Counted from the first letter of the stretch, positions 1,912-45,815 are shown. The stretch: DNA of 64,000 nt from Candidatus Parcubacteria bacterium (GCA_019658995.1 JAIFWN010000001.1:20852-84851); one strand, 5' to 3'. The notes: generated by a model not told the origin, from the sequence alone. A program made the numbers and translations.

Positions 1912-4900
1912 TTGGACAACAAAGAAGCACAAAATGTGCCGCAGGGTGATGGGTGGCTTTCGATGTCGGAGGCGGCTCTTCATACACCCTACAGTTCTGA
2001 GTATCTCTCACTCCTTGCCCGTAAAGGTAAAATCTCCGCAAAGAAGATAGACAACACTTGGTACACCACCAGAGATATTCTTGATTCGTATATGAAGAAG
2101 CAGATGCTTCTTGCTCAGGTGCAAAACGGCGATATCTCTCCCGATCACATATCGGCGCCGAAAATAATTCCAACGCAGGAATCTGTTCCTCTCAAAACTG
2201 TGCGCTCATACGCTGATGATAGTCGCGATTACGACAGCGAGATCGAGAAGCAGAACCACATAAAGTCCATCGAGAATGCGCTAGAAAGAGTCGTAGACAA
2301 AAAATTCGGAAGAGTGGAGAAGTACGAAAGCCTGGTATCGAAAAATTTTTCAGCATTTCGTGATGCATTCGGCAGCAAAGCTATTGTTGTTTCGACTCTC
2401 GTAATTATCGTTTTGTTCACGATCATCCCGATACCCTTCGCCTTCAGCTTTTTTGAAAAGGGTCTGGACTTCGTCAAAGAGCTTGCAAGCGATGCCAATA
2501 CCATAATGGGCTACCGTCCCGGCACCCATAAGAACGAAATACTCCTCCTCGACAAAGACGGAAACATTAGCATCTTTGGCCATATAGAATCACATGTGTC
2601 AAACGGTACTGCTCCGATAGTGGTGGACTCTAAGACCCAGGTGGACAACCTGAATGCGGAATATCTGAACGACATGCATGCGGCCGACTTCACCCTGGCC
2701 TTCGTAACGCAAAACGGCAATGTTACCTCTGAAGATGTAAAGCTAGATGGTACCGTCGAAGTTGGTAAGACACTTGTAGTTAGCGGCGCAACGAAACTCT
2801 TGTCAGCGCTTGAAGTCGGCGGCGGACTCAGGGTGTTCGGCGATGCGGAAATCGGCAAAGCTTTAAGAGTTGTAGGCCCTGCCAGCTTCGAGTCTCTGGT
2901 GACTGTAAAAAATAACCTGGCCGTACAGAGAAACGTTTCCATAAGAGGCGGCCTTGAGATCGGCTCCGGCATTGAGGCAAAATCTGCCGCTTTCAGCAGT
3001 GTCGGCGTATCCGGAACCGTATCGGCCGCTCTCGGTAAGTTTGTCTCCGCAATCATAGACGATATATCGGCGGGAGCGCTGACGGTCTCCTCGACTACGG
3101 CCACGAGTGCCGTAGTTACTAACCTGAACTCCGTCAACCTCACCGGAGCAAGTTCGAGTCTTGCATACTTGACCTTTGATCTGGCTACGGGGACGTCGGC
3201 TACGACGACGAATCTGTTCTCTACCTATCTCACGGCAAGCGGAGCTACCACTACCACTCTCTTTGTAAATAAATTCGATATCCAGCAGGTTACTAATGGC
3301 AGGACAGTTATAGATGCCCGGCGTGTTACAGACTCCGCGCCGTCAGGAGATTTTATTACCTATACCAACGCTGCCGGCAACACGGCCCTCTTCAGGGTAG
3401 ACAACTCAGGTAATATTTTTGCCGGCGGTATTACCAACTCCGGAGCTCTGACTATTACCTCTGCTGTCACTCCGCAGTTTAGGATTCAGTATGATCCGAC
3501 GAACGAAAATACCACTTCCGTTTCTTCAGCCGGAGTTACGACCTTCGGCTTCAACGGCACAACTCCCCGCGCCATATGGATGCCGCAGGCAAACGCAACC
3601 GGAACATTCCAGTTTCAAGATTCATCCGCCAATACTATTTTGGATATTGATACGACAAATCAGAGGGTGGGTATTGGTACGACATCTCCAGCCACCGCTC
3701 TTGATCTGGTTGGCATCGAGGGCATTACCAACGGATATTTGAATGTCTTGCCGGTAAATACGAGCACCTTCAATGCCTTTGCCCTGAAGGGGCGGAATCT
3801 ATCAGCCGGTTCGTCTGTCTCGGTGCCTTACTTCGTGCCTACCGGTACGAATACAAATCAGAAGCTGGCTCTGGACCTCTTGGTCCAAGGGACACCGACG
3901 GATACTGTTGAGCGAGGCGTAGCCTGGATTGATATCACAGATGCCAATGAGACGAACCTGAACTTGGGAAACTACGAAGCCTTAAGCATAGGCAAGTTCA
4001 TAAACGGCCGCGGCAATATCTCCATGGTCGCTGGCGGAACAGGCGTGGTCAGGGACTTGGTATTGCAGGCTGGCGGAGGCAGGGTCGGCATCGGCACGAC
4101 CACTCCTCCAGCGCTACTCTCCGTAAATGATCCGGCCGGAATTGACTCACTTTATATTGGCTCATCGACACCCAAGCTTATAGTCAAACATACTGGTCTC
4201 GTCGGTATTGGCACAGCGGCTCCAAACAAGAAGCTAGATGTGAAGGGCGACATAGCTATCACATCAAGTACTTCGCCGGCAGTGGGTTTGGAGAGATCGC
4301 GCATAAGCGTGTATGACAATGCCATCGAACGCGGCTATATATCCAACTATGTACCAGTTGGCGTGGGCGGGACGAACTTCTCCTCATGGCGCTTCACTGT
4401 GGCCAATAACAGCACACTCTCTGAAGCGATGACTATTGACTATACAGGCAACATCGGTATCGGGACGACCACGCCAATTTCGCTCCTGCATCTGAGCGCT
4501 TCGGTTGTCAACAGCGGACTAGGCACTCTGAGATTATCTCGCCCAGACGCTACCAAAGAGAACTTCATTCGCTTCGATACCAATAATAGTAATTCGCAGT
4601 GGCTTATAGGAATAGACGACAGTACTGGCCAGTCAAGCAATTTCGAGATTATTCCTAATCTAGGAAATTCTGTGTTTGACATAACCACTTTGGGCAACGT
4701 CGGCATCGGGACGACTACGCCGACGTACCGACTGGATGTCTTAAGCGGGACTGGTAATACTGGTACGGGTGGCCATGATGCGAACATTAATGCCCTAGCT
4801 GTGACTGGACCTGATCTGGTGCAGACTTCAGCAGGCGGAAACATCTTTGTAACAACCAATTCTGACTTTGCCATAGACAGAGGAGGATCGATCGGCTTTG

Positions 4901-7788
4901 GCGGCAGATATATAACCGGTTCGTCGAATGATCTGAGCTTCGCAAGCATTAAGGGAGCGAAGGAAAATTCTACCAGTGCGAACCAAAACGGCTATCTGGC
5001 TTTCGCTACCCGCAACAACAACACCGCTACCGCCGCAGAGAGGATGCGCATCGACTCCTCCGGCAACGTCGGCATAGGCACCACAAGCCCTCTTCACTTA
5101 TTGGATGTCAACAATTCTCAAACTACCAACACTGCGGCTGACAATGCTCTGGTGGTTATTCGTTCGGCCAATAGAAGCGCCACCTTACAACTTGACGCAA
5201 AAGCTGGAACGGCATTTGGCGGAATTTCTTTTGCCGATACTGGAGTAGAAAAAGGCAGAATCCAGCTCTCCAACAGCAATTACAGTATGAACTTCCTGAC
5301 CAATGGAACTGAATGGATGACGATCACTTCTACAGGCAACGTCGGTATCGGGGCGACCAATCCGACGAGCGGCAAGCTGCATATGCAGACAACTAGCGCA
5401 GACGATACTCTATATATAGAGACAGTCACCTCCGGAAACCCGATACTATCACTCTCGGCGGCCGGAGTTGGAGGGACACAGCTGTATCAAGATAGAACCT
5501 CAAACTCCTTCCGCATTAAGGCCGAAGGCGGTGCGGATCGTTTAACCATAACTTCTGCCGGAAATGTCGGCATCGGGACGACGACGCCGGGTAGCTTAGG
5601 TTCCGGCGGTACCAGGACTGATCTCCAAATCCATAATGCAGGTACTGATACTACATCCTTCGGCAACCTGATGCTCTCTTCTGGTGCGACTGGCGCCGAC
5701 TCCATCATGGGAGCAATCCAGTTTGGTAGTGCGGGTATCACTGGGTCAGTTGCCCAGAGGACGGCCTTTATTGCCTCTAACAAAGAGTTTGCTAGTGCGA
5801 GCGACCCGGGTGGAAATTTGCGTTTCGCCACTACACTTACAGGTTCGGGCTCTGCTCCGACCGAGAGGATGCGTATAACCAGCTCTGGCAATGTCGGAGT
5901 GGGTACCACGTCTCCGGCTCAACTATTGTCCGTAGGTGGATCGCTTTTCATAGGAGCTTCAGCGGCAGGTGGTACGAGCGGTGGGCTCGGAGTTGGTGTA
6001 GTCAATACGAGTGCGGGAAGTATCGTGACAACAGGTACCGTCTCGGTTGGCAATACCATAAATCTTGGCGGAACCACCGCTCCGAGCGGACTCTTATCAT
6101 GGTCTGGAGCGTCTCCGCTATTGCGCGCTGCGGTTGGCGGGAGTATCAACCTCCAATCAGATAACAACTCCAAGCAGTGGAACTTCGCGGCGGATGGCAG
6201 TACTACGTTTCCTACCGGTGCAGTTTCCGGTATCACCACACTCAGCACCACAGGTTCGATATCGGCAGTAGCTGGTGGCGGAGTCAACATAACGGTTGAC
6301 AGCGACGCTGCCGGAAGCGGATTCAAGCTCAATCGCCTTGGTGCTGAACGCTGGAGCATCAGAAATATCGAAGCAAGTAATTTCCTGGGCTTCTTTGATC
6401 ACCGCGGAACACCGGATTATCGCATGGTGATCAAGGATATTACGGGTTTCGTAGGCATCGGTACTACTACGCCCAACGCCTTACTCAACATTGTTGGAAG
6501 CTCTTCAACTACGAGTCCGCAATTTAGTATCAACTCAAACGGCCTCATCGGCGACAGTGCAGCTTTGATGGTGAATCAGCGCGCCAAGTTCGGCTATGAC
6601 GGTCTACGAAGTGCGGTTTTCATTGATGATGTTGCTACTAATAAACATATTGTCTTCGACACCAACGGATCAGAAAAAATGCGCATTACCCGCACGGGAG
6701 AAGTCGGTATTGGTACAAGTACTCCGCAGGCTGCGCTCGAGGTCAATGGTTCTGTCAGACTAGCAACAGGGATCCTAATACAGAGGACAGCGGGTAGTCC
6801 GGCAAGTTACGCCATTATGAATATTCGAGGCGCGGCCGAGGCCTCGAACTTTGGCAATGCTCTTGGCAACGGGGCGGTGGAAATTTCCGAATTCACCACT
6901 GCAGGCATTATCCTTGGTACGAATAGTGCTAAGCCATTAGCCTTTGGCACGGCCAATACTGAGAGGATGAGGATCGAATCTGGCGGCACTATCAAACTGA
7001 GTTCCGCTCTCGGCACTGGTACCGGGGGCAACTACTTATGTATCGATACCACCACCTTTGAAGTTCTCCGCGGTAACGGTGCGGCATGTACTGCTTCGTC
7101 ACTCCGGTTCAAGGAAAATATAAATGACCTGAACTATGGCCTAGACGAGGTGCTCGCACTACGCCCAGTCTCTTATAATTACAAACCCGAAACCAATATG
7201 GGTTCGGGGGTCAAGCTGGGCTTCATCGCCGAAGAAATGAAGCTCGTGATACCGGAAGTGGTAACGGTTGATAATAACGGCCAGACATTCGGTCTCGATT
7301 ATCCGGTACTGACGTCCGTCCTTACAAAGGCTATTCAGGAACTGAATACTAAAGTGGTGGAGCTCGCTGCAGCGCTCAGTGATCTCGGCGCTACCATCGT
7401 GGATGGAGTCACGCACTTTGCTCGCCTGGCTGTAGAAAATCTATCCGTTGATGCACTCACGTTAGGAAAGCCTGAGAAGCCGGCCGGCATCACCATATAC
7501 GACGAGGCTAATGGAGCACCATTCTGCATAAAGGTGGTCAGCGGTCAGACTGTAACTGTACCTGGTGAGTGTGGCTCTGCTGCGCTCGTAGCAGGCGGCG
7601 GTCCGACCGTCACGATCTTTACACCGGTCGAAATTATCGAACCTACGCCCGGGCTTGAAGCTTCAACCACATTGCCTGTAATCGAGCCAGCGGCGACCTC
7701 CACGCCCGAAACTGCTTCGAGCACTCCGCCGGCTGATCCGGAGCCAGTGCCCCTGACGAGCGCCTCTACGACATCCGATACTATATAA
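1912..7788 (+). CDS. Giant (1958 aa) tail-fibre-like surface protein. It has an N-terminal excisionase-type HTH-like segment, one TM anchor, about 11 GxVGIGTTxP repeats, a C-terminal peptidase S74 intramolecular chaperone domain, and a Pro/Thr/Ser-rich tail.
   Basis: The ORF is 5877 nt. The N-terminus LSMSEAALHTPYSSEYLSLLARKGKISAKKIDNTWYTTRDILDSY resembles an HTH_17/excisionase fold. A TM helix (AIVVSTLVIIVLFTIIPIPFAFSFF) follows. The repeats read MRI(D/T)SSGNVGIGTT(S/T)P..LL(D/S)V. The C-terminus NYLCIDTTTFEVLRGNGAACTASSLRFKENINDLNYGLDEVLALRPVSYNYKP...GFIAEEMKLVIPEVVTVDNNGQTFGLDYPVLTSVLTKAIQELNTKV is the S74 CIMCD. Confidence 0.8.
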   Translation: MDNKEAQNVPQGDGWLSMSEAALHTPYSSEYLSLLARKGKISAKKIDNTWYTTRDILDSYMKKQMLLAQVQNGDISPDHISAPKIIPTQESVPLKTVRSYADDSRDYDSEIEKQNHIKSIENALERVVDKKFGRVEKYESLVSKNFSAFRDAFGSKAIVVSTLVIIVLFTIIPIPFAFSFFEKGLDFVKELASDANTIMGYRPGTHKNEILLLDKDGNISIFGHIESHVSNGTAPIVVDSKTQVDNLNAEYLNDMHAADFTLAFVTQNGNVTSEDVKLDGTVEVGKTLVVSGATKLLSALEVGGGLRVFGDAEIGKALRVVGPASFESLVTVKNNLAVQRNVSIRGGLEIGSGIEAKSAAFSSVGVSGTVSAALGKFVSAIIDDISAGALTVSSTTATSAVVTNLNSVNLTGASSSLAYLTFDLATGTSATTTNLFSTYLTASGATTTTLFVNKFDIQQVTNGRTVIDARRVTDSAPSGDFITYTNAAGNTALFRVDNSGNIFAGGITNSGALTITSAVTPQFRIQYDPTNENTTSVSSAGVTTFGFNGTTPRAIWMPQANATGTFQFQDSSANTILDIDTTNQRVGIGTTSPATALDLVGIEGITNGYLNVLPVNTSTFNAFALKGRNLSAGSSVSVPYFVPTGTNTNQKLALDLLVQGTPTDTVERGVAWIDITDANETNLNLGNYEALSIGKFINGRGNISMVAGGTGVVRDLVLQAGGGRVGIGTTTPPALLSVNDPAGIDSLYIGSSTPKLIVKHTGLVGIGTAAPNKKLDVKGDIAITSSTSPAVGLERSRISVYDNAIERGYISNYVPVGVGGTNFSSWRFTVANNSTLSEAMTIDYTGNIGIGTTTPISLLHLSASVVNSGLGTLRLSRPDATKENFIRFDTNNSNSQWLIGIDDSTGQSSNFEIIPNLGNSVFDITTLGNVGIGTTTPTYRLDVLSGTGNTGTGGHDANINALAVTGPDLVQTSAGGNIFVTTNSDFAIDRGGSIGFGGRYITGSSNDLSFASIKGAKENSTSANQNGYLAFATRNNNTATAAERMRIDSSGNVGIGTTSPLHLLDVNNSQTTNTAADNALVVIRSANRSATLQLDAKAGTAFGGISFADTGVEKGRIQLSNSNYSMNFLTNGTEWMTITSTGNVGIGATNPTSGKLHMQTTSADDTLYIETVTSGNPILSLSAAGVGGTQLYQDRTSNSFRIKAEGGADRLTITSAGNVGIGTTTPGSLGSGGTRTDLQIHNAGTDTTSFGNLMLSSGATGADSIMGAIQFGSAGITGSVAQRTAFIASNKEFASASDPGGNLRFATTLTGSGSAPTERMRITSSGNVGVGTTSPAQLLSVGGSLFIGASAAGGTSGGLGVGVVNTSAGSIVTTGTVSVGNTINLGGTTAPSGLLSWSGASPLLRAAVGGSINLQSDNNSKQWNFAADGSTTFPTGAVSGITTLSTTGSISAVAGGGVNITVDSDAAGSGFKLNRLGAERWSIRNIEASNFLGFFDHRGTPDYRMVIKDITGFVGIGTTTPNALLNIVGSSSTTSPQFSINSNGLIGDSAALMVNQRAKFGYDGLRSAVFIDDVATNKHIVFDTNGSEKMRITRTGEVGIGTSTPQAALEVNGSVRLATGILIQRTAGSPASYAIMNIRGAAEASNFGNALGNGAVEISEFTTAGIILGTNSAKPLAFGTANTERMRIESGGTIKLSSALGTGTGGNYLCIDTTTFEVLRGNGAACTASSLRFKENINDLNYGLDEVLALRPVSYNYKPETNMGSGVKLGFIAEEMKLVIPEVVTVDNNGQTFGLDYPVLTSVLTKAIQELNTKVVELAAALSDLGATIVDGVTHFARLAVENLSVDALTLGKPEKPAGITIYDEANGAPFCIKVVSGQTVTVPGECGSAALVAGGGPTVTIFTPVEIIEPTPGLEASTTLPVIEPAATSTPETASSTPPADPEPVPLTSASTTSDTI

Positions 7789-40083: not shown

Positions 40084-41367
40084 ATGAGTAAGTTCCAGAT
40101 AGGTCTTCTTGTGGTATTCGGGGTTTTCATACTCCTCGCGGTCATTCTCTTCTCCACTAATCGCGGCTCCTCTGTAGACGGCGCCAAGCTTTCAGTATGG
40201 GGTACTCTCTCCGAATACGACTTTAACAATATGATCACGAATTCGGGCCTGGGCAGGAGTGATACTCTGTCCTTCTCTTATACCGAGAAGCCGGAAGGCA
40301 AGCTCTCCGCCGACTTCACCGAGGCTCTGGCCGAAGGAAACGGGCCGGATCTCATAATTTTACCGCTCGAAAACCTTCTCAAGGATAAAAACAAGCTGAT
40401 GCTCATCCCCAATGCAAGCGTCAAACCATCGGATTTCGTATCCACTTTCATAAAGGAGGGCGAGCTCTTCGAGACAGCCGAGGGTACGTACGCCCTGCCG
40501 ATGTATATTGACCCGATGGTTCTATATTGGAACCGGGATCTTTTTGCCAAAGCTTCACTGGCTACACCGCCCGTGTATTGGGATCAGATCTATGATTATA
40601 TTTCCAAACTGACGGTCCGCGACAATGCCGGTAATATCACCCAATCCGCTATCGCTCTCGGCGAGGCTAAAAATATTCCCCATGCCAAGGAGGTTCTCTC
40701 GCTTCTCATGCTTCAGGCCGGCACTCCCATAGTTATAGACTCGGGTATCGGACTCCGCGCCGGCCTCATCGACAGCTTCGGACAGTCTGTGATACCGGCC
40801 CAGGCCGCTCTGGACTTCTACACCCAGTTCGCCAATCCGCAGAAGTCCTTCTATGGCTGGAACCGCTCTCTCGTCACAGCCGATACTCACTTTGCCTCTG
40901 GCAAGAGCGCCATGTACCTCGGCTTCGCCAGTGAGCGGCCGGTGCTCAAGGCCAAGAACCCGACGGCCGACATCGCTGTTGCTCCGGTGCCGCAGTCGCG
41001 CGTAAGCAGCAAGGTCATAACATTCGGACGTATTTATGGTGTAGCTATAGCAAGGAGTGCCAGGGACGGCGCGGCAGCTCTCTCGGGTGTCCTGGCTCTC
41101 GCTAGCAAGGAGAGCGCGGCTGCCCTCTCTGGCGCGACACCGCTTGTACCCGCCCGCCGCGACCTTCTTTCTCAAAAACCGGTTGACCCATTCGGTTCGG
41201 TCTTCTACGGGGCGGCTCTCCAAGCCCGCGGCTGGCTCGATCCGGATTCTGATAAGAGCCAGAAGATTTTTACCGACATGATCGAGTCGGTTACCTCCGG
41301 CCGCCAGAGAGTGGAAGAAGCGGTTAGGACAGCCCAGTCGGCGCTCGATGCCTTACTTTCAAAATAA
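40084..41367 (+). CDS. Membrane-anchored extracellular solute-binding-protein-like protein (427 aa).
   Basis: An N-terminal TM anchor is followed by a periplasmic-binding-protein-like alpha/beta pattern. The family assignment is tentative. Confidence 0.4.
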   Translation: MSKFQIGLLVVFGVFILLAVILFSTNRGSSVDGAKLSVWGTLSEYDFNNMITNSGLGRSDTLSFSYTEKPEGKLSADFTEALAEGNGPDLIILPLENLLKDKNKLMLIPNASVKPSDFVSTFIKEGELFETAEGTYALPMYIDPMVLYWNRDLFAKASLATPPVYWDQIYDYISKLTVRDNAGNITQSAIALGEAKNIPHAKEVLSLLMLQAGTPIVIDSGIGLRAGLIDSFGQSVIPAQAALDFYTQFANPQKSFYGWNRSLVTADTHFASGKSAMYLGFASERPVLKAKNPTADIAVAPVPQSRVSSKVITFGRIYGVAIARSARDGAAALSGVLALASKESAAALSGATPLVPARRDLLSQKPVDPFGSVFYGAALQARGWLDPDSDKSQKIFTDMIESVTSGRQRVEEAVRTAQSALDALLSK

Positions 41368-41372
41368 TATGA

Positions 41373-41454
41373 ATCCCGTTAGAAGCTCGCACAGAACATG
41401 AAAAGTAGATATTCTTTTACTATGATTTTTATAAGAAATAGCTTCTAACGGGAT
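41373..41454. repeat. 15-bp perfect inverted repeat flanking a 52-bp AT-rich spacer. The right arm contains the start codon of the first pilin-like gene.
   Basis: The left arm atcccgttagaagct is at 41373-41387 and the right arm agcttctaacgggat at 41440-41454. The ATG at 41453 lies inside the right arm. Confidence 0.6.
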
Positions 41455-41785
41455 GAATCAACTAGCCGCAATCTGGCAGCCTCTCATTGTCTGTGATGGC
41501 ACACGTGCGGATCCGTGCACTTTCGCAAGTCTCATTAAGCTTACCCAGGTCATCATAAATGACCTCATAGTCATATCGACCGTCCTTGCCACTATCGCTT
41601 TCATCATCATCGGCTTCACTCTTCTTACTTCAGGTGGTGACACTGGCGCATGGAAAAAGGCTAGGGAAAGGTTCTTCAGTGTGGTCGTAGGCTATGTGTG
41701 GATACTGGCGGCATGGCTCATAGTCTATACTATAACCAGCGTGCTTCTGAACAGCGGCTACTCGATCCTGGGATCGCCAAAATAA
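41453..41785 (+). CDS. TrbC/VirB2-like small two-helix membrane protein, paralog 1 of 6.
   Basis: LIKLTQVIINDLIVISTVLATIAFIIIGFTLLTSGGDTGAWKKARERFFSVVVGYVWILAAWLIVY shows two hydrophobic helices separated by a short Gly/charged loop. Confidence 0.5.
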   Translation: MNQLAAIWQPLIVCDGTRADPCTFASLIKLTQVIINDLIVISTVLATIAFIIIGFTLLTSGGDTGAWKKARERFFSVVVGYVWILAAWLIVYTITSVLLNSGYSILGSPK

Positions 41786-42219
41786 TGAAAAAATATACAA
41801 AATACATTCTGGTCATGTCTGTCATCTCCGTGGTTTTCGCCGCTAATGTCTATGCAGTGAACCCGCCTAATCAGGATGATGGGGGAGGAAGGGCGGGAGA
41901 TGACGGCGGCGGCAGGACCGCCGTAAATCTGAAGATCGAGAACCCATTCAAGTGCTCCGGCAGTGAGTCTCAGTGCGGCAGTCTCATCAATCTTTTCAAA
42001 ACAATCGTGGAGAAGGTACTGCTTCCCATTGGCGGTGTAGCGGCTGTAGTCTCCTTTATCTGGTCGGGCTTCCTCTTCGTTACGGCGCAGGGTGAACCTG
42101 CCAAAATTCAGACTGCCAAAAACGCTCTTCTCTACACTGCCATAGGCACGGCGGTGCTCCTGGGAGCTGTGGCTATAGCCACTATTATCGACAACACCAT
42201 AAGTGCTCTCCAAACCTGA
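41785..42219 (+). CDS. TrbC/VirB2-like protein, paralog 2, with a signal peptide.
   Basis: The signal peptide is MKKYTKYILVMSVISVVFAANVYA. The core is LINLFKTIVEKVLLPIGGVAAVVSFIWSGFLFVTAQGEPAKIQTAKNALLYTAIGTAVLLGAVAIATII. TAATG stop/start overlap. Confidence 0.5.
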   Translation: MKKYTKYILVMSVISVVFAANVYAVNPPNQDDGGGRAGDDGGGRTAVNLKIENPFKCSGSESQCGSLINLFKTIVEKVLLPIGGVAAVVSFIWSGFLFVTAQGEPAKIQTAKNALLYTAIGTAVLLGAVAIATIIDNTISALQT

Positions 42220-42509
42220 TGCCGCGTACTTTCGCAGAACTCATAGAAGTGTTTCTCCGTCTGATCGGTCTCCTTTTGCCTCTTCTTATCGCCCTGGCAT
42301 TTCTTGTATTCGTCTGGGGTATCGCCAAGTTCATCGCCAGGTCCGAAGATTCCAAGAGCCATGAGGAAGGCAAGAGCCTCATAAAGTGGGGATTGGTAGG
42401 TCTCTTCGTAATGTTATCATTTATGGGGATCATCCGGTTATTCTACGAGGATATCGGATTCAGCAGGTTCGGATTGCCGCTTCTGCCGCCTTATCACATC
42501 GCAAAATAA
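42219..42509 (+). CDS. TrbC/VirB2-like protein, paralog 3.
   Basis: LIEVFLRLIGLLLPLLIALAFLVFVWGIAKFIARSEDSKSHEEGKSLIKWGLVGLFVMLSFMGIIRLF. TGATG overlap. Confidence 0.5.
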   Translation: MPRTFAELIEVFLRLIGLLLPLLIALAFLVFVWGIAKFIARSEDSKSHEEGKSLIKWGLVGLFVMLSFMGIIRLFYEDIGFSRFGLPLLPPYHIAK

Positions 42510-42862
42510 TGAAAAAAATAACAAAGTTAAATATAATCACAGGCACGCTGCTCTCTCTTCCATTGGCCGCCTGGGCACAACAAAGTCAGGTTTTAAACCT
42601 AATAGAGTACATAATGGATATCGTTGAAAATCTCATTATTCTGGCTGCGGCTCTCGCTCTTCTTGCCTTCATGTGGGGTCTTACCAGGTTTATTTTCAAG
42701 GTCGGGGGTGATGAGAAGGCTATCGAACAAGGTAAGAATCTAATGAAGTGGGGCCTCATAGCCCTCTTCGTGATGATGTCGGTCTGGGGGATCATCAGAT
42801 TCTTCCAGGATGAGTTTGAGCTGGATAACTCTGCACTCGATATCAATTTCCCCATAAGGTAG
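42509..42862 (+). CDS. TrbC/VirB2-like protein, paralog 4, with a signal peptide.
   Basis: The signal peptide is MKKITKLNIITGTLLSLPLAAWA. The core is LNLIEYIMDIVENLIILAAALALLAFMWGLTRFIFKVGGDEKAIEQGKNLMKWGLIALFVMMSVWGIIRFF. TAATG overlap. Confidence 0.5.
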   Translation: MKKITKLNIITGTLLSLPLAAWAQQSQVLNLIEYIMDIVENLIILAAALALLAFMWGLTRFIFKVGGDEKAIEQGKNLMKWGLIALFVMMSVWGIIRFFQDEFELDNSALDINFPIR

Positions 42863-42889
42863 CTCTTAGGAGCCTCGTGGATAGCTGTG

Positions 42890-42917
42890 TTGTAAACTCT
42901 CTATGGTAGAGTATCAT
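42890..42917 (+). promoter_or_regulatory. Promoter-like TTGTAA, 16-nt spacer, TATCAT upstream of pilin-like paralog 5.
   Basis: The -35 element is at 42890-42895 and the -10 at 42912-42917. Confidence 0.35.
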
Positions 42918-42965
42918 TGAGACATACCAACAGGTATATTAAAAATAACAAGTTATAGAGACTTA

Positions 42966-43325
42966 ATGAAAAAGCTTATTTACGCTTCGATCGCGCTTAC
43001 TCCGGCTCTGAGCTTCGCCCAGACCAGCGGTACGCCGACCCTGGGCAACCTCCAGGTACTCCTCAACTCCATCCAGAACCTCGTCAAGCTGGCCCTTCCG
43101 ATAGTTATCGGCCTCGCTCTTCTCGGATTCTTCTGGGGCTTGATGAAGTTCATCTTCTCCGCGGGCAACGAGGAGTCCAAAGCCGACGGCAAGAAGATCA
43201 TGATCTACGGAGTTATCGCTCTCTTCGTGATGGTTTCGGTGTGGGGTCTCGTCAACTTCATAGGCGGTTCTCTCGGAGTCGGCCAGGGAGGCACGGCACC
43301 GGTCCCGACGGTCAACGGTCTCTAA
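42966..43325 (+). CDS. TrbC/VirB2-like protein, paralog 5, with a signal peptide.
   Basis: The signal peptide is MKKLIYASIALTPALSFA. The core LQVLLNSIQNLVKLALPIVIGLALLGFFWGLMKFIFSAGNEESKADGKKIMIYGVIALFVMVSVWGLVNF is closest in layout to Agrobacterium VirB2 (L..L...VPII...ILL..GIAYAGRFI..D...RWSIGVIIAGSAV). Confidence 0.55.
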   Translation: MKKLIYASIALTPALSFAQTSGTPTLGNLQVLLNSIQNLVKLALPIVIGLALLGFFWGLMKFIFSAGNEESKADGKKIMIYGVIALFVMVSVWGLVNFIGGSLGVGQGGTAPVPTVNGL

Positions 43326-43336
43326 GATAGACAGGG

Positions 43337-43603
43337 ATGGATATCTCCTCCTTCCTCGACAAGGTTAATGCTCTTATCATTAACCCGATCATTGTTCTTC
43401 TCTTCGCCATTGCTTTCCTCGTCTTCTTCTTCGGCATCTTCCAGTTTGTAGGCTCGGCGGGGGAGAGCGGCGAGAGAGACAAGGGCAAGAAGAAGATTAT
43501 GTACGGTCTTATAGGAATGTTCATCATGTTCAGTGCCTACGGGCTTATCCGCCTGGTGCTCGGCACGTTCGGTATAAACGCACCATCTTACATCAACCGT
43601 TAA
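43337..43603 (+). CDS. TrbC/VirB2-like protein, paralog 6.
   Basis: LDKVNALIINPIIVLLFAIAFLVFFFGIFQFVGSAGESGERDKGKKKIMYGLIGMFIMFSAYGLIRLV. Confidence 0.5.
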   Translation: MDISSFLDKVNALIINPIIVLLFAIAFLVFFFGIFQFVGSAGESGERDKGKKKIMYGLIGMFIMFSAYGLIRLVLGTFGINAPSYINR

Positions 43604-44535
43604 GTCTTGGATAAAAAAGAGCCGATAGCGACTGTGGTAGTCGCTATCGGCTTTTGTGTTGGGCGAGCACTGCATTTTCTGCCCGTGCTTTCCTGGTGTA
43701 CATAGATCGCGGCGGATGCGCCCAGAGCTCTGAAGCGAACTCCTCCACTGACGTCCACGATTTTTTCGGGAGGATCTCCAGGCCAGAACTCGACCCAGCC
43801 GTCTTTCTTGGTCCAGACCGCATAAGCGGAGTGAGAATTGGCAGGTCTCTTCCAGCCGAGGTACGGATTTCCGAGTGTATTGGGCAAGAAGATCCGTGAC
43901 GGCTCACTCCCGACCATGATGACGAATGCCGTATCACAAGACGGAAGGATGAGAGCCGAGTCGAGCATCTTGGCATAAGTCGCCAGTGCGATCGCTCTTA
44001 CTCGCTTCTCCTCAGCTTCTTCCCTGTCGCTTCGCTTCCCGTTCCAGACCAGGAAGAGGACAGTCGCCGCGACGACTATGCCCCAGCCGAGTGTCATGAG
44101 CAGAACATCGACAGATCTCGATGGTTTTGCAGCACCAGTCCCAGGTCTGCGTTTCTTCCAGAGCTTATAACCGCCTTGGACCAGAACTAAGCCGGCGACG
44201 ATCCCGAGAGCCCACTTCCCGATCGTCAGCCAGGGCAGAGTCATGAGCCAGGCCCAGACACTTGATGATGGACCGCTAGCTTTAGCGGCCAGGAACACCA
44301 CCAGCGTAATCGTGATAATACCCTGGATTGCCAATTTCGCGTCCGGGATAATTGCCGAATTGCGTGTCGATCTCTTGAAAGACCGAAGTGCGACGCGAGT
44401 TCGGGTTTTCAATCTCAGGCCGCGATTTGTTAAGGTCATGTGCCGAGAAATCCGGTTACGTCTGGCTTTCCAGAGAATCTGGGTCTCTCGCCAGCTCTTG
44501 TCCAATCTGGCACGAAGTCTATTGAGCATCCTCAT
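43600..44535 (-). CDS. Hypothetical membrane protein (311 aa) with a basic N-terminus, three TM helices and a C-terminal extracytoplasmic domain; GC-rich.
   Basis: ORF with TM helices (IITITLVVFLAA, WALGIVAGLVLV, LGWGIVVAATVLFLV). A strong promoter lies upstream. Confidence 0.45.
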   Translation of the reverse strand: MRMLNRLRARLDKSWRETQILWKARRNRISRHMTLTNRGLRLKTRTRVALRSFKRSTRNSAIIPDAKLAIQGIITITLVVFLAAKASGPSSSVWAWLMTLPWLTIGKWALGIVAGLVLVQGGYKLWKKRRPGTGAAKPSRSVDVLLMTLGWGIVVAATVLFLVWNGKRSDREEAEEKRVRAIALATYAKMLDSALILPSCDTAFVIMVGSEPSRIFLPNTLGNPYLGWKRPANSHSAYAVWTKKDGWVEFWPGDPPEKIVDVSGGVRFRALGASAAIYVHQESTGRKCSARPTQKPIATTTVAIGSFLSKT

Positions 44536-44645: not shown

Positions 44646-45815
44646 TTACTTGCTGCCGACAAGAACTGCTGGAGTGGCTCCGCCTCGTACAGAAGTTGTA
44701 ACTACCTTGTTGTTTTCGTAAGCCTCGGCCTCACGTGCACGTGCTGCGAATTCGCCGGCGTTAGCTATGGGTATAATAACCTTCTGCACATGGTCAGCCT
44801 GACCCTCGTTCACGCGCAATTGAGCATTACGCTCGCCTGTAGCCACGACGACAGCTCGCCTTGCTTGCTTGATGGCGACACGGACTTCGAGGTCCGCAGC
44901 AAGGATTTTGGCTTCTTGCTCGCGCTTGGTTTTCTCCTGGAGCTGGAGAAGCTCACGCTGCTTGGCATCCATGTCGATGGCGTAGAGTATGTACCTCTCA
45001 GCCTGGATGCCTATGACATCTAGAGCTCGCTCCTTGAGCTTCTTGAGTACATCCGTGCGGAGCTGTTCTTTCCGCTCCTTCAGTTTGCCATGCACCTCTT
45101 CGGTGGGAACATCTTCGAAGAGGTAATACTCAGGCTGGTGACTCCCTGTCTCATCGGTGACTACCTCGTCGACGAGAGAGGTGAGAGTCGCGTTTGAGTC
45201 AGCGACCTTAAGTCTCGCGCGGACAGGGAATTTCTCCTGGTACACAACCTTGCCATATACATCAATGGTGTATGTACCCGCTGTCTCAGCCCCACGAGTA
45301 GCAACGTCATTCTCGCGAGAGTAGTAGACGAAGGTCGTATCATAGCTCAGGGGCTCCTCTTTATACCTGGGCATTTCGTATTCTTCGCCCCTCTCCCGCT
45401 TCTCTTCGGCTTCGCGAAGTTTAGCCTCGTCAATCTTGAGGCGGACTTCACTGATCTTGTTGATCCGAATTTCCATGAATGGGCCAAGCCAGGTCGCGCC
45501 GTAGAGATAGTACATGAGTCCGCGTCGGTGAGTCTCACGTCCGGGAACGACTTCCCAGTTCATAAGGTCATGACCGGCTCGCTTGATCTTGTGGCCAGGT
45601 ACCCCGCATACGATATCAAGAATTTCACTCCCCGAAGCGGGTGTCGCTTTCTGAGGATCGGCCACCGCTCGCTTGCGATTGCTTTTCCGCTGAAGAAAGC
45701 CATTTGTGCCAGCCGGCACGAAGCACCAGATAGTGCCTCGGCTCGCCAGCGTTCTCACGACGAATCCAACGATGAAGTAAGAAGCTATGAGCCAAATCCA
45801 GAAAAACATTTGCAC
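44646..45815 (-). CDS. Membrane-anchored protein (389 aa) with an SPFH/band-7-like or coiled-coil C-terminal region.
   Basis: An N-terminal TM helix (FFWIWLIASYFIVGFVV) is followed by a region with an Ala/Glu/Arg/Lys-rich coiled-coil tail resembling HflC/K-type proteins. This is tentative. Confidence 0.35.
   Translation of the reverse strand: MQMFFWIWLIASYFIVGFVVRTLASRGTIWCFVPAGTNGFLQRKSNRKRAVADPQKATPASGSEILDIVCGVPGHKIKRAGHDLMNWEVVPGRETHRRGLMYYLYGATWLGPFMEIRINKISEVRLKIDEAKLREAEEKRERGEEYEMPRYKEEPLSYDTTFVYYSRENDVATRGAETAGTYTIDVYGKVVYQEKFPVRARLKVADSNATLTSLVDEVVTDETGSHQPEYYLFEDVPTEEVHGKLKERKEQLRTDVLKKLKERALDVIGIQAERYILYAIDMDAKQRELLQLQEKTKREQEAKILAADLEVRVAIKQARRAVVVATGERNAQLRVNEGQADHVQKVIIPIANAGEFAARAREAEAYENNKVVTTSVRGGATPAVLVGSK

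Follow-up and report, generated by a model that had tools for sequence, protein, structure and literature searches.

Why should a bacterial chromosome carry six pilin-like genes in a row with none of the genes for a type IV secretion system (T4SS) beside them? The question is raised by a stretch of 64,000 nucleotides from Candidatus Parcubacteria bacterium (GCA_019658995.1 JAIFWN010000001.1:20852-84851), referred to here as the window, in which six consecutive open reading frames (ORFs) of the plus strand, named pil1 to pil6, occupy positions 41453-43603 and are directly preceded by a gene for a homologue of solute-binding proteins (SBPs). Our analysis makes it probable, if not firmly so, that the locus is a seven-gene chromosomal operon of a Zambryskibacteria-related member of the Paceibacteria, and that it encodes an SBP homologue together with six PF18895 pilins of a mixed-subunit pilus or conduit, the corresponding T4SS being encoded elsewhere.

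Layout, family and predicted fold of the six genes

The original prediction, which was made from the sequence alone, described the six ORFs as tandem paralogs on the same strand that share one helical-hairpin layout, and this description holds. Counted from their ATG starts, the genes encode products of 88-144 amino acids (aa): pil1 (41453-41785, 110 aa), pil2 (41785-42219, 144 aa), pil3 (42219-42509, 96 aa), pil4 (42509-42862, 117 aa), pil5 (42966-43325, 119 aa) and pil6 (43337-43603, 88 aa), the last being the final gene of the operon. The lower end of the size range given at first (88 aa) is retained, whereas the upper end (158 aa) came from an over-extended ORF with a GTG start. Common to all six is a core in which an amphipathic segment is followed by two hydrophobic helices with a short Gly/charged loop between them; over this core, pairwise identity among the six is 18-40%. 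To this core pil1 adds a conserved pair of cysteines ahead of the hairpin, and pil2 a Gly-rich low-complexity stretch between its signal peptide and the hairpin. The signal peptides of pil2, pil4 and pil5 end in VYA, AWA and SFA, with the canonical small residues at positions -3 and -1, and pil1, pil3 and pil6 have none; each product is predicted to be a small two-helix membrane hairpin, three of them with a cleavable Sec signal peptide and three without. A hidden Markov model built from the six found no seventh copy in the window.

The genes are tightly packed. The three junctions for which translational coupling had been proposed are exactly as described, with TAATG at 41783-41787 between pil1 and pil2, TGATG at 42217-42221 between pil2 and pil3, and TAATG at 42507-42511 between pil3 and pil4; the starts of pil2 and pil4 are ATGs that overlap the preceding stop codon, the ATG of pil4 at 42509 overlapping the stop of pil3. 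Directly after the stop of pil6 lies a GC-rich hairpin (43617-43655) with 17-nt arms that are 94% complementary, which is likely the terminator of the operon. Because the junctions are coupled and this terminator is the only one, the six genes are predicted to be co-expressed rather than kept as silent cassettes. The coding parts of the second helix in pil3 and pil4 share an 85-nt direct repeat (42367-42451 and 42729-42813, 71% identity). This diverged repeat is the sole DNA repeat at the array, where we found no truncated cassettes and no repeats suited to recombination.

The assignment to a family leaves little doubt: on sequence grounds the six are certainly paralogues and members of PF18895 (T4SS_pilin). 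The original prediction had proposed a comparison of each paralog with two Pfam families, and the outcome was divided, as all six exceed the gathering cutoff of PF18895 (26.6 bits), with scores of 27.8, 29.9, 30.5, 39.9, 48.3 and 33.5 bits from pil1 to pil6, and none reaches that of PF04956 (TrbC/VirB2, 27.9 bits). Profiles of the orthologue groups at the six positions match each other at hhalign probabilities of 94-100%. The best conserved product, that of pil5, has a 100% identical counterpart at NCBI, which is named 'pilin [Candidatus Parcubacteria bacterium]' and encoded on a contig of 121,467 bp, and PF18895 is present in all 437 homologues of pil5, of which those bearing names belong to Patescibacteria. 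Tandem arrays of such genes have also been published (Quinonero-Coronel et al. 2025, PMC12102498). With this family assignment, the existing NCBI name and the published arrays, the suggestion that the locus might represent a new family of filaments or toxins can be set aside; the finding is a further example of a published phenomenon. Pil5 was also the one pilin modelled with AlphaFold (47 aligned sequences), and its model has a signal-peptide helix followed by a hairpin of helices 27-64 and 69-102 (pLDDT 77), so that the expected hairpin was obtained for this gene.

PF18895 is a very large family: in a library of 1.84 billion proteins, the pilin profile matched 48,327 cluster representatives at E <= 1e-3. 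Many of the top matches in this representative library are single polypeptides with two to eight tandem hairpin domains, for example proteins of 353 aa with three domains, 552 aa with six and 820 aa with eight (P0361, P0371 and P0373). These poly-pilin fusions have continuous linkers and lack internal signal peptides.

Conservation of the array and of its leading gene

For comparison we used 79 related loci, obtained from a scan of one genome per GTDB species, in which the identity to pil5 is 45-70%. The names of these relatives are Zambryskibacteria, Campbellbacteria, Wolfebacteria, Parcubacteria and Saccharibacteria, the last apparently mislabels. The copy-number comparison across relatives that had been proposed at the outset did find variation, from five to seven copies, but not lineage-specific turnover: of the 61 loci in which the array is covered in full, six pilin genes are present in 47, seven in ten and five in four. 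Moreover, the genes correspond to each other position for position. With a Zambryskibacteria locus, pil1 to pil6 pair in order at 60, 46, 56, 47, 70 and 59% identity, compared with 53% for the flanking SBP. In 53 genomes with six genes, the best match between genomes lies at the same position in 99, 96, 71, 41, 100 and 100% of cases for positions 1 to 6, and orthologues at positions 1, 2, 5 and 6 have median identities of 43-55%. Positions 3, 4 and 5 form a closer subfamily, with 44-48% identity within a locus, and the gene at position 4 often has its best match elsewhere in a position-5 gene. Together with the repeat shared by pil3 and pil4, this suggests repeated duplication or gene conversion within the subfamily of positions 3, 4 and 5, with types 1, 2 and 6 fixed.

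The conservation extends to details. The inter-helix loop motif is kept within each orthologue group (e.g., AAGDEE.K.EGK at position 5), a C.G.....C motif is conserved in the pil1 group, and the presence or absence of a signal peptide at each position is conserved in the orthologues. To judge from these comparisons, the six are an old and stable set of distinct, position-specific subunit types and not a diversifying reservoir.

The leading gene (40084-41367, plus strand) is just as constant a part of the locus. It is the first gene of the operon, and its product of 427 aa has an N-terminal membrane helix followed by an SBP_bac_8/SBP_bac_1 domain (Pfam matches to both, E 2.8e-16). A Foldseek search with its AlphaFold model (pLDDT 87.8) found oligosaccharide-binding proteins as the best matches, such as 2zyo (E 7e-22, TM-score 0.73-0.80), and more generally maltodextrin-, mannooligosaccharide- and beta-glucoside-binding proteins (E around 1e-21, TM-score 0.7-0.8), so the product is predicted to be a membrane-anchored SBP homologue with the MalE fold. 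In each of the 64 related loci with room for one, the gene just upstream of the array encodes an SBP homologue, and GyrA is found farther upstream in 62 related loci, in a block with the order gyrA, methyltransferase, SBP, pilins; in relatives the SBP gene stands between gyrA or the methyltransferase gene and the pilins. The linkage between the SBP and the pilins could be functional, or it could reflect mere strong local synteny. The former is favoured because the two are translationally coupled in relatives, where the gap from the stop of the SBP gene to the start of pil1 has a median of 1.5 nt and an overlap of 4 nt occurs in 14 loci. No gene for an ATP-binding cassette (ABC) permease or ATPase (BPD_transp, ABC_tran) was found in the window by Pfam. 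The sole ABC component seen beside SBP-pilin operons comes from one relative, where the gene that directly follows the array on the same strand (L080:10700-12538, plus strand) encodes a protein of 612 aa with an ABC_tran ATPase domain.

In the window, the SBP gene and pil1 are separated by an 85-nt spacer instead of the overlap of SBP stop and pil1 start that is seen in relatives, which do not have the spacer. Within it lies a perfect inverted repeat of 15 bp (41373-41387 and 41440-41454, plus strand). Its 3' arm reaches into the start codon of pil1, of which it includes the first two bases, and also takes in the GGG directly before that codon. The heptamer ATGAATC flanks the insert at 41369-41375 and 41453-41459, the second copy being the start region of pil1. 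In its sequence, the region from 41368 to 41459 looks like a small insertion; a search of the window for other inverted-repeat elements of this kind found none. The RNA of the spacer has a predicted folding energy of -27.7 kcal/mol (z = -4.7), and the predicted stem would sequester the two start-codon bases and the adjoining GGG.

What the hairpins may build

The original prediction proposed that the array might supply satellite pilins to a T4SS encoded elsewhere, and this is still the best reading, supported by proxy via the genomes of relatives. Two genomes that bear the array, GCA_001825315.1 (L001/L005) and GCA_001825155.1 (L043), are listed as VirB4-present (PMC12102498, Table S1), and in neither does a T4SS gene of VirB4 size occur within 10 kb of it. 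Separation of pilins from the rest of the system also has a published precedent: when 3,035 genomes of Patescibacteria were searched with pilin profiles that included PF04956 and PF18895, VirB2-like pilins were found in 1,948 VirB4-containing assemblies and lay near virB4 in only 1,135 of them (PMC12102498). The homology of the six to canonical VirB2 is remote, its basis being the Pfam assignment, weak TrbC matches and the published genomic context.

On this proposal, the hairpins would be inserted in the cytoplasmic membrane and then drawn from it by a monoderm-type T4SS (VirB4, TrsD, PrgI/VirB3, VirB6) encoded elsewhere. The result would be a mixed-subunit pilus or conduit for use by the epibiont on its host cell, in which one type is probably the major subunit and several others are minor or specialised. 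The sugar-binding protein, being co-translated, may act with this structure, for instance by recognising a glycan on the host surface. The fixed set of six types, the detachment from T4SS genes and the constant SBP lead all argue for a structure with a defined mixture of subunits, possibly with a glycan-recognition partner.

Several observations weigh against a T4SS pilus. In agreement with the original prediction that no other T4SS genes lie nearby, Pfam scans of 76 further ORFs in the window (those outside the array that do not overlap and reach at least 80 aa, and a few overlapping ones, over 41 kb upstream and 20 kb downstream) found none of the VirB4, VirD4, VirB6/TrbL, PrgI/VirB3 and VirB8 families. 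The window is ordinary chromosome, with genes for MurJ, LepA, a class I tRNA synthetase, TsaD, FtsZ, FtsA, GyrA, IF-2, ClpB, ParB, TopA and DprA and 14 tRNA genes. In none of the 79 loci does a T4SS gene of VirB4 or VirD4 size occur within 10 kb of the array. The 10 kb past the right end of the window, as represented by metagenome relatives of the window's DprA, contain genes for SerRS, Dus, DnaX, a glycosyltransferase and the like, but none for a T4SS or a pilin. Two array-bearing genomes (L027 and L062) are listed as VirB4-absent (PMC12102498, Table S1), both being incomplete drafts, of 468 and 603 kb.

The similarity to VirB2 is also weaker than the close parallel to mature VirB2 that had been drawn at first, and that parallel is not supported. 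Five of the six match PF04956, all of them below the cutoff (10-23 bits), four at E <= 0.0073 and the fifth at E 0.95; the highest score is that of pil2 (23.0 bits, E 9e-5), pil1 has 18.1 bits, and a list by gene gives 16.9 and 10.2 bits for two others and no match for pil3 and pil4. When a pilin alignment and each of the six orthologue groups were compared with VirB2 by hhalign, the probability was at most 2.6% (E 0.018-0.5), with low power owing to a narrow VirB2 alignment (effective number of sequences around 3). This alignment comprised 27 Agrobacterium-type sequences from among homologues of Agrobacterium tumefaciens VirB2, and the query used to collect them matches the database entry at 98% identity. 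The match to VirB2, in itself not significant, spans the whole hairpin in register for groups 1 and 2. When the PDB was searched by sequence profile, the pKM101 TraM pilin (8cw4) came out best, but at E 0.23 this match is not significant either. A Foldseek search of the PDB with the pil5 model gave no match at E <= 0.001; helices of chemoreceptors and toxins came out on top, and an archaeal conjugation pilus was tenth (E 3). A fold search of this kind is unable to separate a two-helix hairpin from many unrelated ones. Finally, the universal SBP partner is unexplained by the T4SS model, and in the literature searched we found no pilus of any PF18895 protein.

These difficulties give some room to a different explanation, which we consider unlikely although it is the most serious rival. 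The six hairpins could be a membrane module independent of any T4SS, that is, a fixed hetero-oligomer such as a channel, ring or scaffold that is not polymerised by VirB4 and that works with the SBP, for example in the capture or uptake of host-derived oligosaccharides. Such a complex would fit an SBP gene that adjoins the array in 64 of 64 loci and usually overlaps the start of pil1, but the adjacency could merely reflect the strong synteny of the block from gyrA through the methyltransferase and SBP genes to the pilins. It would equally suit a product with a true MalE-like oligosaccharide-binding fold that has no gene for an ABC permease or ATPase in the window, as well as the fixed set of six types. 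The poly-pilin fusions are hard to square with a simple homopolymer pilus and suggest side-by-side packing of paralogues, and natural single chains with three, six and eight hairpins would suit packing of this sort in a membrane. The lack of T4SS genes near the array in any of the 79 loci, and a homology to VirB2 that is here statistically unproven, point in the same direction; so does the failure to detect VirB4 in two array-bearing draft genomes, but these are the incomplete ones. Two published observations count against the module: six PF18895 genes of Southlakia epibionticum are located inside a T4SS cluster and are essential along with it, and pilin genes adjoin virB4 in 1,135 assemblies (PMC12102498).

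Between the T4SS pilus and a module of this kind stands a more ambitious possibility, to which we give slightly less credence than to the module itself. The six types and the membrane-anchored oligosaccharide-binding protein might be parts of one dedicated apparatus with a defined set of subunits, a heteromeric filament or conduit with a glycan-recognising component, detached from VirB4 and possibly independent of it. If this were true, the fusions of three, six and eight hairpins would be covalent versions of the same assembly, and PF18895 proteins would make up hetero-oligomeric envelope structures of a class of their own, not simple VirB2-type homopolymer pilins.

That the array is a reservoir of variant pilins for antigenic or host-range diversification, as proposed for the virB2 genes of Bartonella, Anaplasma and Rickettsia, is by now improbable, the evidence having largely refuted it. 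The idea, which the original prediction had based on strong differences in the exposed loop, could draw on a within-array identity of merely 18-40%, on a copy number that varies from five to seven, on the lower stability of positions 3 and 4 (71% and 41% same-position best matches) and on the published suggestion that versatility might aid adaptation to different host strains (PMC12102498). However, the genes at positions 1, 2, 5 and 6 are one-to-one orthologues in 53 genomes (96-100%), and such fixed orthology, position for position, argues against ongoing antigenic diversification. The pilins are 46-70% identical to those of the Zambryskibacteria relative, most of them being at least as conserved as the SBP (53%), and each orthologue group keeps its loop motifs. 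With a start codon in every gene and with coupling or close spacing between neighbours, the six are predicted to be co-expressed and not switched, and the array is devoid of truncated cassettes and of recombination-suited repeats. In the solved pili of the VirB2 family (F, pKM101 and the T-pilus), the inter-helix loop faces the lumen and the termini point outward, and by analogy the loop that was called exposed is unlikely to be an antigenic surface.

We rejected, as very improbable, the idea that the six are small secreted or membrane-active toxins, bacteriocins or holin-like proteins with no relation to filaments, which their small size, hydrophobic two-helix structure, occasional signal peptides and non-significant fold matches to helices of pore-forming toxins might recall, since no immunity, processing or export genes occur at the locus, the array holds a conserved housekeeping position by gyrA in 62 loci, all six exceed the PF18895 cutoff, the homologous array of S. 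epibionticum is essential, and toxin loci are typically variable and not fixed as six types.

Neighbouring genes and known systems

At the end of the array, an ORF of 311 aa on the minus strand (43600-44535) has no Pfam or NCBIfam match and no homologue among the post-array genes of the 79 relatives. Its last 17 codons cross the hairpin at 43617-43655, and the minus-strand T-run of this hairpin precedes its stop; it is either a lineage-specific gene or no gene. In relatives, the convergent gene directly after the array encodes a multi-pass membrane protein of 126-686 aa (42 ORFs, in around 38 of the 79 loci; e.g., L005:10719-11864, L052:6278-7924, L065:10742-12016 and L038:10438-11679, all on the minus strand). 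Some of these proteins have weak lysozyme-like domains (SLT_3 at 26.4 bits, with a cutoff of 27, and SLT at 16.5 bits), and the gene may encode a VirB1-like wall hydrolase tied to the pilins. No counterpart of it is detectable in the window, and searches with phmmer and jackhmmer found nothing to connect it with the ORF at 43600-44535. At 44646-45815 (minus strand) the window encodes a protein of 389 aa without a Pfam match. In 45 related loci a member of its family is encoded by the second gene after the array, and its orthologues exceed the SPFH/Band 7 cutoff (25-27 bits against 23.6); it is a conserved neighbour for which no link to pilins is known. At the far left of the window, two plus-strand genes (218-1264 and 1912-7788) encode proteins with the Peptidase_S74 intramolecular-chaperone domain, one of them 1,958 aa long. 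This domain is known from phage tail spikes and endosialidases, and the two proteins are possibly large self-processing surface fibres of the episymbiont.

How does the operon compare with systems already described? A close precedent is the survey of Patescibacteria pilins (PMC12102498), in which 383 assemblies were found to carry 441 arrays, each of 2-11 pilin genes, with identities that average 25% and reach at most 54%. An array was defined there as at least two PF18895 or PF04956 genes in tandem or with one non-pilin gene between them, and our locus, with six tandem PF18895 genes at identities of 18-40%, belongs among them. The published arrays are commonest in Microgenomatia and Saccharimonadia and their variability was read as possible adaptation to host strains, whereas here the array is found in Paceibacteria, consists of six fixed orthologous types and has an SBP gene in the lead. 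Neither a solute-binding protein nor gyrA is mentioned in that work (PMC12102498). What is new here is thus a fixed six-type set, kept in order across many related species, detached from T4SS genes and headed by an SBP gene.

In Southlakia epibionticum, a series of pilin genes in the T4SS cluster was found to be essential by transposon sequencing (Wang et al. 2023, PMC10633639). In strain ML1 this series comprises six PF18895 genes, SEML1_0014-0019, all essential (PMC10633639, tables), and it has been described as six divergent VirB2-like pilins (2025 review, PMC12857230). The likeness to our array is close: in both cases there are six tandem, same-strand, divergent PF18895 hairpin genes in a Patescibacteria host (103-185 aa there and 88-144 aa here), and in both some members match TrbC/VirB2 weakly. 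The setting is different, however, since SEML1_0014-0019 sits in a T4SS cluster by genes for a VirB6-like protein, PrgI, VirB4 and a lysozyme, whereas here the array follows gyrA and the SBP gene, and S. epibionticum belongs to the class Saccharimonadia and not to Paceibacteria. Only a few systems have been demonstrated to be indispensable to a cultivated Patescibacterium in its life as an epibiont; the T4SS with its pilin array is one of them, and the role of the two is still called completely unknown (PMC11665869), a picture that our locus leaves as it was.

Beyond Patescibacteria the resemblances become more distant. The six share with Agrobacterium VirB2, RP4 TrbC and pKM101 TraM their size, a signal peptide in some members, two hydrophobic helices and a short polar loop. 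They differ from PF04956 pilins in scoring below the cutoff of that family, in their monoderm host, in having no linkage to virB genes and in that three of them have no signal peptide. Another likeness, to a monoderm system, is that to the Mbov_0395 family of pilin-like proteins from Mycoplasma integrative and conjugative elements (NCBIfam NF045849), whose 80-position model is matched by all six over the hairpin (E 5e-6 to 4e-3). This fits the origin from mating-pair formation type FATA (MPF-FATA) that has been proposed for the T4SS of Patescibacteria (PMC12102498). With scores of 17-26 bits against a cutoff of 40, however, the six are not members of the Mbov_0395 family, and in Mycoplasma the gene occurs once, on a mobile element, in contrast to the six-gene chromosomal operon described here. 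As to multi-copy arrays, those of virB2 in Bartonella, Anaplasma and Rickettsia also consist of several tandem or dispersed paralogues of low identity, and in Rickettsia the T4SS genes are scattered as well. Those arrays, nevertheless, belong to MPF-T systems of diderm bacteria, encode true PF04956 VirB2 proteins and have been read as a means of antigenic variation, whereas the operon of Paceibacteria carries stable orthologue groups.

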